From contig DAORWD010000001.1 of assembly GCA_035434085.1 (NCBI GenBank), forward strand, positions 1 to 26,988: DNA of 26,988 nt. The letters are read 5' to 3'. The notes beneath the pieces are model-generated. The model made no database searches. It was not told the DNA's origin and worked only from the letters and a program-made list of their open reading frames with translations. The DNA is from Planctomycetaceae bacterium. GTDB lineage: Bacteria > Planctomycetota > Planctomycetia > Planctomycetales > Planctomycetaceae. A program made the translations under genes and the position numbers. Shown here piece by piece: positions 8,453 through 13,301 of the stretch. Position 1 is the first letter of the stretch. Each line of letters starts with the position of its first letter.

Positions 8453-9145
8453 ATGCAAAACATTGAAGCGTATCCTATCCCCGGCTTCCGGGAGCCATTC
8501 AGTTGCTTCACTCATCTCGCGGCAGCGCCTGTCTTTGCGGTGCTGGGTTATTTTCTTGTGCGCCGCGGGCGAGGAAGTATCAGTCGCACGGTGAGCCTCG
8601 CAATTCTGGTTCTTTCGTCTGTCTTCCTGCTTTCGATGAGCGGCACCTATCATCTGCTGGAACACGGCACCACCCGAGACGTCATGCGGCAGCTTGACGT
8701 GGCAGGCGTGTTTGTGCTGATTGCCGGAACCGTGACACCGGTGCATACAATTCTGTTTCGCGGTTTCGATCGTTGGATGCCTCTGCTGTTGATCTGGTCA
8801 GTGGCGGCGGCGGGGATCCTGTTGAGAACAATGTACCCGGATGGCCTTGCAACTGGATTTGCGACGAGCATCTTCTTGCTGATGGGCTGGGGTGGAATCG
8901 TCTCGTTCGTGCGGTTATGGAGGAGATACGGATTCTCGTTCGTCCGGCCCGTATTGTTGGGCGGCCTGTCTTACACGGCTGGCGTGTTTATCCTCGACCT
9001 GAATTGGCCAACGCCAATCCCCGGCATTATCGGTGCTCACGAGTTGTGGCATGTGGCCGTGCTCGCTGGCCTTGGCCTGCACTGGAAGTTTGTCTTCCAA
9101 TTCGCCGACGGACCGCCTGAGGATCAGCTTACTCAGCTGAGCTGA
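8453..9145 (+). CDS. Hemolysin III / PAQR-family membrane protein
   Basis: EPFSCFTH, SGTYH, LD..GVFVLIAGTVTP and HELWHVAVLAG...HW motifs; multiple hydrophobic segments. Confidence 0.9.
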   Translation: MQNIEAYPIPGFREPFSCFTHLAAAPVFAVLGYFLVRRGRGSISRTVSLAILVLSSVFLLSMSGTYHLLEHGTTRDVMRQLDVAGVFVLIAGTVTPVHTILFRGFDRWMPLLLIWSVAAAGILLRTMYPDGLATGFATSIFLLMGWGGIVSFVRLWRRYGFSFVRPVLLGGLSYTAGVFILDLNWPTPIPGIIGAHELWHVAVLAGLGLHWKFVFQFADGPPEDQLTQLS

Positions 9146-9162
9146 TGCCACCTATTAACAAG

Positions 9163-9702
9163 TCAAAAGGACCGAACAGCGATCTCCAGGGCCGGTTTGA
9201 GCCACGGTGCATATGTCTCCGGCCGTCGCTGCATGTCGGCCATCAATTCGCTGGTCTCGATCCATTTCCAATCTATGATCTCGTCCGGGTTCGGCCGCGG
9301 TTCGATTTCGCTGGTGGCGTGTCCGGTCAAGACCGTGTCGTGTTCATGTTCCACACCGTGATCAGCTTCCTCCGCGATGTACACGAAGCTGCCGACAATC
9401 TTTAATGGCACCCGAAAACCGAACTCTTCGTGCAGACGTTCCGCTGCCACTTCCGCCAAATCCTGTGCCGGACGACGCGGGTGACTGCAACATGTGTTCG
9501 CCCAGCGGGCGGCGAACAGCGGTTTGTCCGCGCTCCGCTGCTGGATCAGCAACTCACGGCCCCGGCTTCTGAAAACGAACACCGAGAACGCCTGATGCAG
9601 CATTCCAGGCGCAGTATGAGCTTCCATCCGATCGGCCATCCCGATGGGCTCGCCGTCCTCGCTACACAGGACGACTTGAACTGGTGCTGCCGCATTCATC
9701 AT
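9163..9702 (-). CDS. idi: Isopentenyl-diphosphate delta-isomerase type 1 (Nudix-like)
   Basis: AH..PGMLHQAFSVFVF, LLIQQRS..K, WANTCCSHP, EHEHD.VL and EIIDWKW motifs. A GAGGAG RBS precedes ATG at 9702. Confidence 0.92.
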   Translation of the reverse strand: MMNAAAPVQVVLCSEDGEPIGMADRMEAHTAPGMLHQAFSVFVFRSRGRELLIQQRSADKPLFAARWANTCCSHPRRPAQDLAEVAAERLHEEFGFRVPLKIVGSFVYIAEEADHGVEHEHDTVLTGHATSEIEPRPNPDEIIDWKWIETSELMADMQRRPETYAPWLKPALEIAVRSF

Positions 9703-9837
9703 TTGCACTCTCCTCATAATCGACGGAACCAAAATGCTCAGATCTTTCATTGTAGTACATGATGCAGTGGATGAGGCCGACGTGGAATCACTGGCTGTCG
9801 AGTTGGTCCAGACAAGCCTGGCGGTGCCACATCGCTA

Positions 9838-10080: not shown

Positions 10081-12654
10081 CTAACTTCCAGGCATTCCTT
10101 TTCGGCGCGGTTCCACCGCCTTACGGATCGAATGCTCGACCTCCTGCCAGCCTTTACGCTGGGGAGAATACTCCAGCACCGGTTTGGCGTTCCAGGTGGC
10201 GGTCTGGAACTTCTTCAATTCCTGCTCCAGCGGGACGTTGGAGTCCCAACCGTCGCGGTCGAGTGGAACGACGATTAGTGTGCAGGATTTATCCTCGGCC
10301 TTCGCACGTTTCACCGCTTCCGGTGCCTCGGTCTGCTGAATGAAACTCGAAGCACAGCTATTGATCGAGTGGAACAAGAGCACGATGTCCGCCCCGGCCA
10401 ATTCCTCCAGGATGCGCTCCTCCCATTCCTCGCCGGCCACCAATTGTTTGTCGTCCCAAGTCTGAATGTAGCCGCGCTCGCCGAGGATGGTCAGGTGCTT
10501 CGACAGCGGCCGAATTTTCTTTTCGTCGTCATGGGCGTAGCTGACAAACAGCCGCATCCGGGGCAATGCAGAGTCCCGATCGGCTTCGCAGGCTTGCGGG
10601 CTTTCGATGCTGTCCAGCGTCTCCGTCACCATCACCGTTGCCTGCTCTCCATCTTTGGTTTCTTCTTCGACTTTCCTGGTCCCTTTCTCTTCGAGCAACC
10701 GCAGCTTTCCCACTCGCACCCAGGAATCCCGGTGCTCTTCCATTTCCACTTCTTCCACCACTCGGACCTTGCCGTGCAAGACAGTCAGATGCGCGCGGAT
10801 CAAGTCAAACAGACTCTGCGGATCATCCGCCGTGTCATCGATGACGGCCACCTCGGTGCGGCGTTCGGTGCGGTTGAGACGGACCAGCGCCCGGCATTCG
10901 GCCCATTCCAGCACCACGCCGCTGCGCCAGCGCCAGTCGGGATGCTCTTCACTCATCTCGTGGGTCCGCACGATGAACCGCGGCAGCAGTCCGGGCGGCA
11001 GTGCGTCGGGATACGAGAATCGCAGCCGCCGCACCTGCGGACCTCGGAACTCCGTGAAGGCTTCCGGCTGTTCTTCGCGCAGCAATTCGGGAATCAGCCA
11101 GCCCGTGCCATCCAGCGGAAACGCCACCTCGAACTTCTCCATCAGTTCGAGCACGAGGCCGTGTTTGTCTTCCGGGTATTCGGCCGGGTCGAGCGCCTGC
11201 GTCATGGACGAAAGCTGCATCACGCCGTGGCAGTCCTGTTTCTGGACGAATCGGATCAGGCCGTAGATCGCTTCCGTGACCCATTTCGGCTTCAACACGC
11301 TGGTCGATCGCAGTCGATGGTGGTCTCGGAAATTGAGCGCGATTCCCAACCGGTGCAGCGTCTGCACCAAGCTGTCTTGCTTGCCAACGTCGTCCACGCC
11401 GGTCTCCTGGCACAACGCCTGGTAGTCCCGGTATTCCAGGAAACTCTGCGGCATCTCGGTCAGCTTTTGCTTCACGCGGTGCCACTTCTTCGACACGCCC
11501 AGCCACACGTCCCGCATGCCGCCCACGGTCTTCGCCAGCAGCTCGCGCAGCGTCTCAATTCCGCGCAGCGTGAAGGCACCCGTCTCGACGAACCCAGCGA
11601 TTTGCGGGCAGCGTTCCTGCAGACGGAAGCGATCGACCGAAAAGGGGTGATCGTCGTACTTCGTCAGAACCACGATCACCGGACTGTCGCCGCCAAAGCT
11701 CTGGATAAACCGCAGCCAGTAGTCGGTCTCCAATTCCCAATTGCTTTCCCGGCCCTGTAACACGAGCAGATAGACGCAGCGTTCGGCGAGAAAAATCTGA
11801 TGTGTGCCGTGCAGAAATTCCTGCCCGCCGAAATCCCACACATGTCCCGTCGCAGTTCCCTGCGCGCAGTTCAGGTCAAGCGGCAGCACGTTGATGCCCG
11901 GCGTCTCAAGTTCCTCTTTGTCCGTGGGCTCTCCGCGCAAGGCCTTCAAGAGCGATGTCTTCCCGACTCGCCCACGTCCGACCAACAGCAGCCGCACTTC
12001 CCGCATCGGCTCCTTACCTTCGGCCTGTCGCGAAAAATAGAAGTCGAGGATCGCCTGCGGATTAGCGGGTGGATTATTTTCGGCTGATTCGCTAAACATT
12101 GGCCCCAACAGTTCGGTGGGCAGTTCCAAGGCTTCGTTGCCGTGCAGTGTCAGTTCTTTGAGTGATCGTAGGTCTTTCAAACTTTCCGGCAGTTTTGTCA
12201 GCGCGTTGTTTTCCAGAATGAGCCGTTCCAACCCGGCCAACCGCCCGATCTCCGGTGGCAACGTGCTGAGTAGATTGCTGCCAAGGTAGAGCGACGTCAA
12301 CGCGGTAAACTTGCCGATCGCCTGCGGCATTGTGCTGAGTCGGTTGCCTTGCAGGACAAGCCACTTTAATGCCGTGAGGTCGCCGATCTCTGCTGGCAGT
12401 GTGCTGAGCTTGTTGCTGCTGACGTCGAGTGACGTCAACGCCGTGAGCTGGCCGATCTCCTGCGGCAGTGTACGGAGTTGGTTGCCTTGCAGAATAAGCC
12501 ACGTCAACCCTTTCAGCTGGCCGAGGTCCAGTGGCAGCGTGCAGAGGCCCAAATGGCTCAGATCGAGATGACGGCCGCCCTCCTCGCGACAGGCGTCGAT
12601 CCGTCGCTGGGCTTCGGCGTAGCCGTCATTGGACTTGCTGCTGGTCTTTGCCAT
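10081..12654 (-). CDS. LRR-Roc-COR-TIR (prokaryotic Roco) protein
   Basis: About 7 23-aa LRRs; Roc P-loop GRGRVGKT, switch II WDFGGQE, TKYD; COR region (LHRLG..L.F, VLKPKWVTEAIY, PPGLLPRFIVR); C-terminal TIR-like domain LFVSYAHDD...WDDKQLVAGEEWEERI...ADIVLL...SFIQQTE (10084-10554). Start reassigned to ATG 12654. Confidence 0.92.
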   Translation of the reverse strand: MAKTSSKSNDGYAEAQRRIDACREEGGRHLDLSHLGLCTLPLDLGQLKGLTWLILQGNQLRTLPQEIGQLTALTSLDVSSNKLSTLPAEIGDLTALKWLVLQGNRLSTMPQAIGKFTALTSLYLGSNLLSTLPPEIGRLAGLERLILENNALTKLPESLKDLRSLKELTLHGNEALELPTELLGPMFSESAENNPPANPQAILDFYFSRQAEGKEPMREVRLLLVGRGRVGKTSLLKALRGEPTDKEELETPGINVLPLDLNCAQGTATGHVWDFGGQEFLHGTHQIFLAERCVYLLVLQGRESNWELETDYWLRFIQSFGGDSPVIVVLTKYDDHPFSVDRFRLQERCPQIAGFVETGAFTLRGIETLRELLAKTVGGMRDVWLGVSKKWHRVKQKLTEMPQSFLEYRDYQALCQETGVDDVGKQDSLVQTLHRLGIALNFRDHHRLRSTSVLKPKWVTEAIYGLIRFVQKQDCHGVMQLSSMTQALDPAEYPEDKHGLVLELMEKFEVAFPLDGTGWLIPELLREEQPEAFTEFRGPQVRRLRFSYPDALPPGLLPRFIVRTHEMSEEHPDWRWRSGVVLEWAECRALVRLNRTERRTEVAVIDDTADDPQSLFDLIRAHLTVLHGKVRVVEEVEMEEHRDSWVRVGKLRLLEEKGTRKVEEETKDGEQATVMVTETLDSIESPQACEADRDSALPRMRLFVSYAHDDEKKIRPLSKHLTILGERGYIQTWDDKQLVAGEEWEERILEELAGADIVLLFHSINSCASSFIQQTEAPEAVKRAKAEDKSCTLIVVPLDRDGWDSNVPLEQELKKFQTATWNAKPVLEYSPQRKGWQEVEHSIRKAVEPRRKGMPGS
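12229..12504 (-). repeat. ~138-bp tandem duplication inside the LRR region
   Basis: GACGTCAACG occurs at 12293 and 12431 (offset 138) and the flanking sequence is closely similar. Protein repeats 2/4 and 3/5 are pairwise alike. Boundaries are approximate. Confidence 0.75.
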
Positions 12655-12959: not shown

Positions 12960-13140
12960 GACCCCATCCGGCTCGCCCGGATCGGTGAATCTGATGGAGT
13001 GCTAAGAACTCGCCCCCATCACCGGTTCCCTTCTTCCAGTCCTGCCGCCGAAGGCGGCAGGACTGGAAGAAGTGGGCTGTGGCCGGGCTCCTTTTCTAGC
13101 TCACCATCATCTTCACCAATGGCACGAGGCCATTGGGGTC
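12960..13140. repeat. Inverted doublet of the GACCCC-hairpin repeat with a central perfect hairpin (REPIN-like)
   Basis: Copy at 12960-13004(+) GACCCC ATCCGG CTCGC CCGGAT CGGTGA and copy at 13096-13140(-) GACCCC AATGGC CTCGT GCCATT GGTGA AGAT GATGGTGAGCTAG. A perfect 20-bp stem with a GAA loop lies between them at 13030-13072. Confidence 0.8.
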
Positions 13141-13142
13141 GA

Positions 13143-13301
13143 AGGAACCAAGCCATCGCGGGCGATCGCCAGATAGATTCGCGGCCCTGTGATCATATTG
13201 GAATTCGTTGCGCCGAATGTCGAGATCATCACACCGACCGCAGCAACTTTGGCCCCCACCGGACCGAACGTCACCTGAAACACGTCGACCGCGACGACGG
13301 A
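13143..13301 (-). pseudogene. Fragment of an APC-family amino acid permease
   Basis: 53 codons read SVVAVDVFQVTFGPVGAKVAAVGVMISTFGATNSNMITGPRIYLAIARDGLVP, matching the APC 'ISTFG..N.....PR...A.ARDG..P' segment. The rest of the gene is missing on both sides. Confidence 0.8.

Follow-up and report, generated by a model that had tools for sequence, protein, structure and literature searches.

An LRR-Roc-COR-TIR gene in a planctomycete genome

We analysed a 26,988-nt stretch of DNA (the window) from contig DAORWD010000001.1 of a Planctomycetaceae bacterium assembly (GCA_035434085.1), which carries one gene coding for N-terminal leucine-rich repeats (LRRs), a Roc GTPase, a COR region and a C-terminal TIR domain in a single chain. 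The ORF list and its translation gave an uninterrupted open reading frame (ORF) of 857 residues on the minus strand at window positions 10081-12654, with the ATG at 12654 and the stop codon at 10081-10083. A GTG 51 nt further upstream could also serve as the start and would lengthen the protein by 17 residues, but homologues begin at the ATG.

The Pfam matches for LRR, Roc, COR-A, COR-B and TIR_2 each lay above the curated cut-off, and the PADLOC model ThsB1 covered residues 701-851 (E 5.7e-21). A full-length AlphaFold model (pLDDT 82) placed seven evenly spaced strands over the LRR array, the 69-nt periodicity of which was also seen in the DNA at 12225-12546. All four modules (LRR, Roc, COR and TIR) are real. 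The first-pass annotation of this DNA had read an LRR array, Roc motifs, COR and a C-terminal TIR-like domain from the letters, and the domain check that it proposed, by hidden Markov models and AlphaFold, was run and confirmed them through Pfam, the motifs, Foldseek and the models of the full-length protein and of the TIR domain alone (pLDDT 93.7). The features are collected in Table 1.

Table 1. Features of the LRR-Roc-COR-TIR gene, in window coordinates
Feature	Position	Strand	Basis
Whole LRR-Roc-COR-TIR gene, 857 aa, ATG to stop	10081-12654	-	ORF translation; Pfam architecture; full-length homologues with equal architecture
N-terminal capping helix ahead of the LRRs, residues 6-25	12580-12639	-	Full-length model; loose AY..A.RRI motif in family consensus
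LRR array, seven 23-residue repeats, residues 28-185, presumed sensor	12100-12573	-	Pfam LRR_8/LRR_4/LRR_14 at residues ~30-180; 69-nt direct repeats; model strands
Roc GTPase domain, residues 219-380	11515-12000	-	Pfam Roc 221-334, E 3.6e-21; 4wnr alignment; motifs
P-loop (G1) GRGRVGKT	11956-11979	-	Read from sequence
Switch II (G3) DFGGQE	11818-11835	-	Read from sequence
G4 TKYD	11653-11664	-	Read from sequence
COR-A, residues 389-525	11080-11490	-	Pfam PF16095, E 1.5e-32; genome search finds the same place
COR-B, residues 543-672; dimerisation module in CtRoco	10639-11028	-	Pfam PF25497, E 1.2e-17; Foldseek to 3dpu, 3dpt
TIR domain, residues 701-852, presumed NAD+-cleaving effector	10099-10554	-	Pfam TIR_2 703-808, E 2.3e-11; PADLOC ThsB1; model; Foldseek
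Codon of E776, predicted catalytic Glu, in SSFIQQTEAP	10327-10329	-	Invariant TIR column; aligned with Cat1 E74

No signal peptide or transmembrane (TM) segment was seen at the N-terminus, which argues against a secreted LRR/TIR effector directed at a eukaryotic host, in the manner of type III secretion system LRR effectors or TcpB/BtpA-type TIR proteins. Homologues are named 'internalin A' in some sources, and NCBIfam returned weak LRR matches to XopAE, XopAC, XopL, SlrP and internalin, but these fell on generic LRR only, at 27-90 bits against cut-offs of 450-1600. With a central Roc-COR switch, which known secreted effectors lack, and with free-living environmental Planctomycetota and Verrucomicrobiota as hosts, a secreted effector is hardly credible.

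The Roc-COR module belongs to the Roco family

The protein has the hallmarks of a Roco family member, namely a Roc domain with intact G1, G3 and G4 motifs and COR-A and COR-B directly C-terminal of Roc. The Roc-COR part aligned in sequence to Methanosarcina barkeri Roco2 (4wnr, E 2e-69), with 39% identity in Foldseek, and residues 45-658 aligned to Chlorobium tepidum Roco (CtRoco; 6hlu, E 2.4e-63). Foldseek with the full-length model likewise ranked CtRoco 6hlu first (6.5e-35), followed by LRRK1 and LRRK2. The G/K/T residues of the P-loop and the residues of DFGGQE were invariant in 29 family members.

CtRoco is a dimer without nucleotide and a monomer with GTP (PMC6337361). The planctomycete protein shares with CtRoco (6hlu, 3dpu, 8r4b) and M. 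barkeri Roco2 (4wnr) the LRR-Roc-COR core, COR-B and the G1, G3 and G4 motifs; nucleotide-dependent cycling between monomer and dimer is known for CtRoco and would apply to the planctomycete protein only by analogy. The matched CtRoco and MbRoco2 entries comprise LRR-Roc-COR or Roc-COR only and none aligned to the TIR part, whereas here a TIR domain follows COR-B. A 2019 review of Roco proteins described the prokaryotic members as LRR-Roc-COR only (PMC6337361).

The TIR domain retains the residues of an NADase pocket

A search for relatives of the TIR domain gave 17,596 cluster representatives at E <= 0.001, from which 53 diverse TIR domains were aligned. The TIR domain alone, compared with PDB sequences by phmmer, produced chance matches only. 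The profile of the 53 TIRs matched Cat1 best (9mud, 1e-9), followed by TLRs, AtTIR, Roq1, PdTIR and AbTir. The sole invariant column across the 53 domains was E776, the Glu of SFIQQTE, which in the profile alignment fell opposite Cat1 E74 and the E of the WCL-DEL motif of the plant AtTIR; S705, D735 and S769 aligned with Cat1 S7, D33 and S68. These four Cat1 residues line the NADase pocket, which forms between two TIR domains, and the D33A, S68A and E74A variants are defective and no longer toxic, S7 not being among the mutants (PMC12162218).

The active-site mapping of E776 combines the profile alignment with the secondary-structure position, which in the TIR-alone model was helix alpha-C, after strand beta-C. 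Foldseek with this model supported the flavodoxin-like TIR fold, retrieving the TIR domains of RUN1, TLR1, SARM1 and AbTir at probability 1.00 and TM-scores of 0.5-0.64; RUN1, SARM1 and AbTir are NADases. The aromatic-to-Glu spacing is one residue longer than in TIR NADases (S-S-F-I-Q-Q-T-E here versus S-x-W-C-x-x-E). The first-pass annotation had placed this Glu at the usual catalytic position and had named a Glu outside the active site as a ground for rejecting its idea; since E776 maps to the experimentally tested Cat1 E74 and is invariant in the 53 TIRs, that objection fails. Judged from these alignments, the TIR domain looks catalytically competent as an NADase. A two-copy TIR complex prediction scored 0.00 in a run without controls, a value that weighs neither for nor against self-association.

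A variable LRR part, the presumed sensor, joined to conserved Roc, COR and TIR domains

The full architecture was present in about 40 protein clusters, with TIR domains 56-90% identical, and a scan of species-representative genomes yielded 73 loci. Among 29 full-length members the mean identity to the planctomycete protein was 80% for Roc, 70% for COR-A, 67% for COR-B, 68% for TIR and 55% for the LRR part. Within the repeats, entropy was 2.4-3.2 bits at the x positions of LxxLxLxxN, on the concave face, versus 0.1-0.6 bits at the scaffold Leu and Asn, a difference possibly inflated by repeats set out of register in the alignment. The N-terminal region ranged from 101 to 363 residues among homologues, and therefore the number of repeats varies.

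Paralogues in one Chthoniobacteraceae genome were 86-92% identical in Roc and just 39-54% identical in the LRRs. Such a combination of variable sensor, conserved switch and conserved effector, as read from the alignments, is the pattern of immune receptors; it was expected of an NLR-like protein and was seen both in the family identities and in the comparison of paralogues. LRR-Roc-COR-TIR paralogues occurred in the Chthoniobacteraceae metagenome-assembled genome (MAG) SMAG_U4275 (L050, L052, L056, L062) and in a Verrucomicrobiae MAG (L048, L049). There were 2-5 paralogues per such genome, with near-identical Roc domains and divergent LRRs, which resembles a small receptor repertoire.

An ENA metagenome contig carried a second intact copy of 857 aa (P0002), 96% identical to the planctomycete protein. 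It was 100% identical in the LRR and Roc and 92-95% identical in COR and TIR, a distribution that suggests recombination between alleles.

Patchy distribution and foreign composition

The host genome is a 7.5-Mb MAG, 96% complete, with one COR-A match and 23 TIR_2 matches (for example C796:754-1122, C178:7477-7836 and C179:3050-3361), an unusually large TIR repertoire. Several of the TIR_2 matches lay inside open frames of 900-1190 aa.

When 24 genomes of the same genus were queried with the whole protein, a close relative was found in one, G011, which is also the closest genome. Three other congeners gave partial or distant matches: one to Roc-COR only (28% identity), one to TIR only and one to LRR-Roc only. 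The four-gene block that flanks the gene was kept without any Roco gene in three other congeners. The gene departs from its genome in composition: its GC content is 59.7% versus 55.1% for the genome, at the 99.6th percentile of equal-sized windows, and its third-position GC content (GC3) is 74.6% versus 61.5 +/- 4.0% over 1969 long ORFs, at the 99.9th percentile.

A quick maximum-likelihood tree placed the protein among mixed phyla. A well-supported clade of 23 members comprised Verrucomicrobiota (13), Planctomycetota (8) and one alphaproteobacterial bin, and in its sister clade Acidobacteriota, Verrucomicrobiota, Planctomycetota and a Bacillota bin were mixed on short branches; the odd taxon labels perhaps stem in part from mis-binned MAG contigs, but several copies come from contigs of megabase length. 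This distribution is most simply explained by horizontal acquisition and subsequent loss. Vertical inheritance, which the first-pass annotation had set in advance against an immune role, was not seen, given a close relative in one of the 24 congeners, the extreme GC3 and the mixture of phyla.

The copy in G011 occupies the corresponding place, adjoining a DUF1549/DUF1553 gene, and is broken (L034:90-2133, contig C463, minus strand). Its LRR part carries a frameshift, a TAG stands where switch II has its Gln, and 540 nt corresponding to window 10634-11173 are missing, which takes away COR-B and the last part of COR-A, although an assembly error in this MAG could account for these lesions. The frame stays open over the TIR part, with about 87% identity. 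Such damage in the orthologue would fit a recently acquired gene that is out of use and heading for decay. For the window gene this is very improbable, as its 857-codon frame is intact with the catalytic and nucleotide-binding motifs all kept, and the intact copy P0002 exists in another metagenome.

The gene stands without a conserved partner

The neighbours in the window code for RibH, Rho, CoaE, phosphoglucomutase, dihydroorotase, TrhA, isopentenyl-diphosphate isomerase (Idi) and a unit of ECF-sigma, DUF1549-1553 and DUF1501 genes. Across 33 homologous loci no neighbour family recurred in more than four. No adjacent same-strand ORF with at least two predicted TM segments lay beside the planctomycete gene, and among the 33 loci there was one adjacent multi-TM ORF only (359 aa, 2 TM, at L048), which did not recur. 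Since there is neither a recurring neighbour family nor an adjacent small multi-TM ORF, the LRR-Roc-COR-TIR protein is stand-alone, with no conserved partner gene. The small ORFs in both flanking intergenic regions had no Pfam match.

The missing partner bears on a Thoeris-like explanation, in which the TIR domain would make a nucleotide messenger (a cyclic ADP-ribose isomer or the His-ADPR type) for an effector encoded elsewhere in the genome. ThsB1 is the best PADLOC match of the TIR domain, and the 23 TIR_2 matches show that TIR-based systems are abundant in this genome. Defence sensors and effectors are normally linked, however, and no ThsA-type, SLOG, Macro or multi-TM gene was found beside the planctomycete gene or recurring in the 33 loci; the Thoeris arrangement of a ThsB-like TIR next to a ThsA-type SIR2, Macro or TM with SLOG effector was seen neither here nor there. 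We thus regard a messenger for a distant effector as rather improbable.

The gene directly downstream (9163-9750, minus strand) was considered as a 'NUDIX' partner that processes ADP-ribose and was rejected: NCBIfam identified it as isopentenyl-diphosphate isomerase (149 bits, cut-off 127), and it does not recur beside homologues. Mobile-element scars bracketing the gene were likewise discarded. The 152 nt at 13144-13295 match, at 91% identity, an inner segment of a gene for an amino-acid permease (523 aa) that is intact in G011 between the Roco and DUF1549/1553 genes (L034:2552-4123); what the window keeps of the permease gene appears to be a deletion scar, not a transposon.

Compared between the two closest genomes, this part of the DNA is a hotspot of rearrangement. 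The TrhA/haemolysin-III gene (window 8453-9145) lies between dihydroorotase and Idi and is absent from that place in G011, where dihydroorotase abuts Idi (L035:8280-10141), and past Idi G011 has oxidoreductase genes where the window has the Roco gene. A perfect hairpin with a 20-bp stem and 3-nt loop was also observed at window 13030-13072, in the intergenic DNA that follows the DUF1549/1553 gene and lies upstream of the Roco gene. With up to 3 mismatches allowed, its stem sequence was found nowhere else in the window.

A candidate GTPase-gated conflict sensor

On balance, and with modest confidence, the protein most likely acts in the cytoplasm as a conflict sensor that needs no partner and consists of one chain, a member of the prokaryotic LRR-Roc(AP-GTPase)-COR-effector class, with TIR as the effector and GTPase-gated depletion of NAD+ as the outcome. 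In the resting state the protein would be inactive, probably a monomer loaded with GTP whose LRR packs onto Roc-COR, on the model of CtRoco. An invader-derived ligand on the LRR, or a change in guanine-nucleotide state, would shift Roc-COR to COR-B-mediated dimers or higher oligomers. This assembly would juxtapose TIR domains to form a composite NADase site, after which NAD+ would be depleted and the infected cell would stop growing or die (abortive infection). The scheme draws on the nucleotide cycle of CtRoco (PMC6337361) and the inter-TIR active site of Cat1 (PMC12162218). Since the gene is not accompanied by one for a receptor or an effector, depletion of NAD+ is likelier than synthesis of a second messenger.

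Several observations weigh against a conflict sensor. Co-localisation of homologues with defence islands, which the first-pass annotation had proposed to check, was not supported: about 5 of the 103 immediate neighbours at the 33 loci match any PADLOC model, a count that has no matched control set and comes from a resource that is thin for these phyla, and Pfam assigned the neighbours to ordinary metabolic, housekeeping and ribosomal families. The neighbour genes in the window had no PADLOC match. The LRR entropy carries the alignment uncertainty given above, and between close copies other parts change faster than the LRR, since P0002, the nearest copy, is identical in LRR and Roc and differs in COR and TIR. 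The CtRoco cycle does not by itself say which nucleotide state would activate the TIR domain. Finally, the literature searched contained no experimental study of any LRR-Roc-COR-TIR member, and within that literature the earlier statement that no tested function is known for the architecture still holds.

The housekeeping surroundings of nearly all loci would suit a non-immune regulator, a GTP-gated NAD+/ADPR enzyme or scaffold acting in stress, developmental or kin-recognition signalling. The 67-80% identity of Roc, COR and TIR, indicating purifying selection, and the diverse signalling roles of eukaryotic Roco proteins (PMC6337361) point the same way. We nevertheless consider such a regulator unlikely: the gene is patchy in the genus with a decayed copy in the sister species, its composition is foreign, the LRR face is hypervariable with a changing number of repeats, and some genomes hold expanded paralogues with divergent LRRs, all of which is more typical of a conflict gene than of a core regulator.

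A more tentative proposal, to which we give somewhat less than even weight, concerns the switch. Roc-COR, with weak nucleotide affinity and a nucleotide-dependent monomer-dimer equilibrium, might serve as the assembly gate of the TIR NADase, which would make the protein a GTPase-based counterpart of NLRs that integrates LRR ligand and GTP/GDP state, and immune sensing might be ancestral to the LRRK2/Roco family. Were the mechanism true, Roco-TIR would represent a second, STAND-ATPase-independent way to build a one-protein innate immune receptor, and NAD+ loss would offer a simple bacterial read-out for the Roc-COR switch, the misregulation of which in human LRRK2 causes Parkinson's disease. 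The planctomycete copy, which is 857 aa long, keeps every motif and has no partner gene, is a compact candidate for testing.

Comparison with known systems

Among TIR NADases, Cat1 (9mud), AbTir, SARM1 and Thoeris ThsB resemble the planctomycete TIR in fold, catalytic Glu and Ser/Asp pocket residues. The activating module differs, being a Roc-COR GTPase with LRRs here versus CARF and cyclic tetra-adenylate (cA4) in Cat1, ARM-SAM in SARM1 and a separate ThsA partner in Thoeris. Plant TNLs (Roq1, RPP1) and bacterial Avs and bNACHT proteins likewise combine a repeat sensor, an NTP switch and a TIR effector, and in NLR-type receptors with TIR effectors the TIR activity depends on induced oligomerisation. 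Where Avs and bNACHT have a central STAND ATPase, the planctomycete protein has a small Ras-like GTPase with COR as its switch: Pfam found no STAND domain (NACHT or NB-ARC), and Roc is the only NTPase in the protein. The domain order is also reversed, with the LRR N-terminal and the TIR C-terminal. Brown-algal LRR-ROC-COR proteins, candidate immune receptors with a proposed immune repertoire (PMC11378527), have a Roco scaffold with diversifying LRRs in common with the planctomycete protein; unlike it, they are eukaryotic, owe their diversity to exon shuffling and lack a TIR effector.

The closest counterpart is the class of 'AP-GTPase-centred counter-invader systems' described by Kaur, Iyer, Burroughs and Aravind (eLife 2021, PMC8195603), in which at least 24 C-terminal effector domains occur, TIR among them, and in which LRR+AP-GTPase+COR+TIR is a predicted counter-invader protein. 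The architecture, which the first-pass annotation had presumed to be in databases, is thus already catalogued. In the source data of the same study the string COR+TIR occurs about 580 times, one instance being the entry for Npun_F6039 of Nostoc punctiforme, and several paralogues per genome with different effectors are described there as frequent and not obligatory (PMC8195603). The planctomycete protein shares with this class the order of four modules in one chain, from a variable N-terminal LRR through AP-GTPase and COR to TIR as the C-terminal effector, and the predicted immune role. Its family also has rapidly evolving N-terminal LRRs as judged by entropy, repeat number and paralogues, within the uncertainty of the repeat alignment. 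Several paralogues with different effectors are absent; the 96%-complete genome has one Roco gene by its single COR-A match, whereas other genomes carry 2-5 TIR-type copies. The present members form a Planctomycetota/Verrucomicrobiota subclade without partner genes, and the published class was itself predicted by computation.

The idea of an immune role for this architecture is therefore not new, having been put forward by Kaur et al., and the locus leaves the existing prediction for the class unchanged. What it adds is a Planctomycetota/Verrucomicrobiota clade that lacks partner genes, a base composition that clearly points to transfer, a sister copy in decay, and support from individual residues for an active TIR domain.

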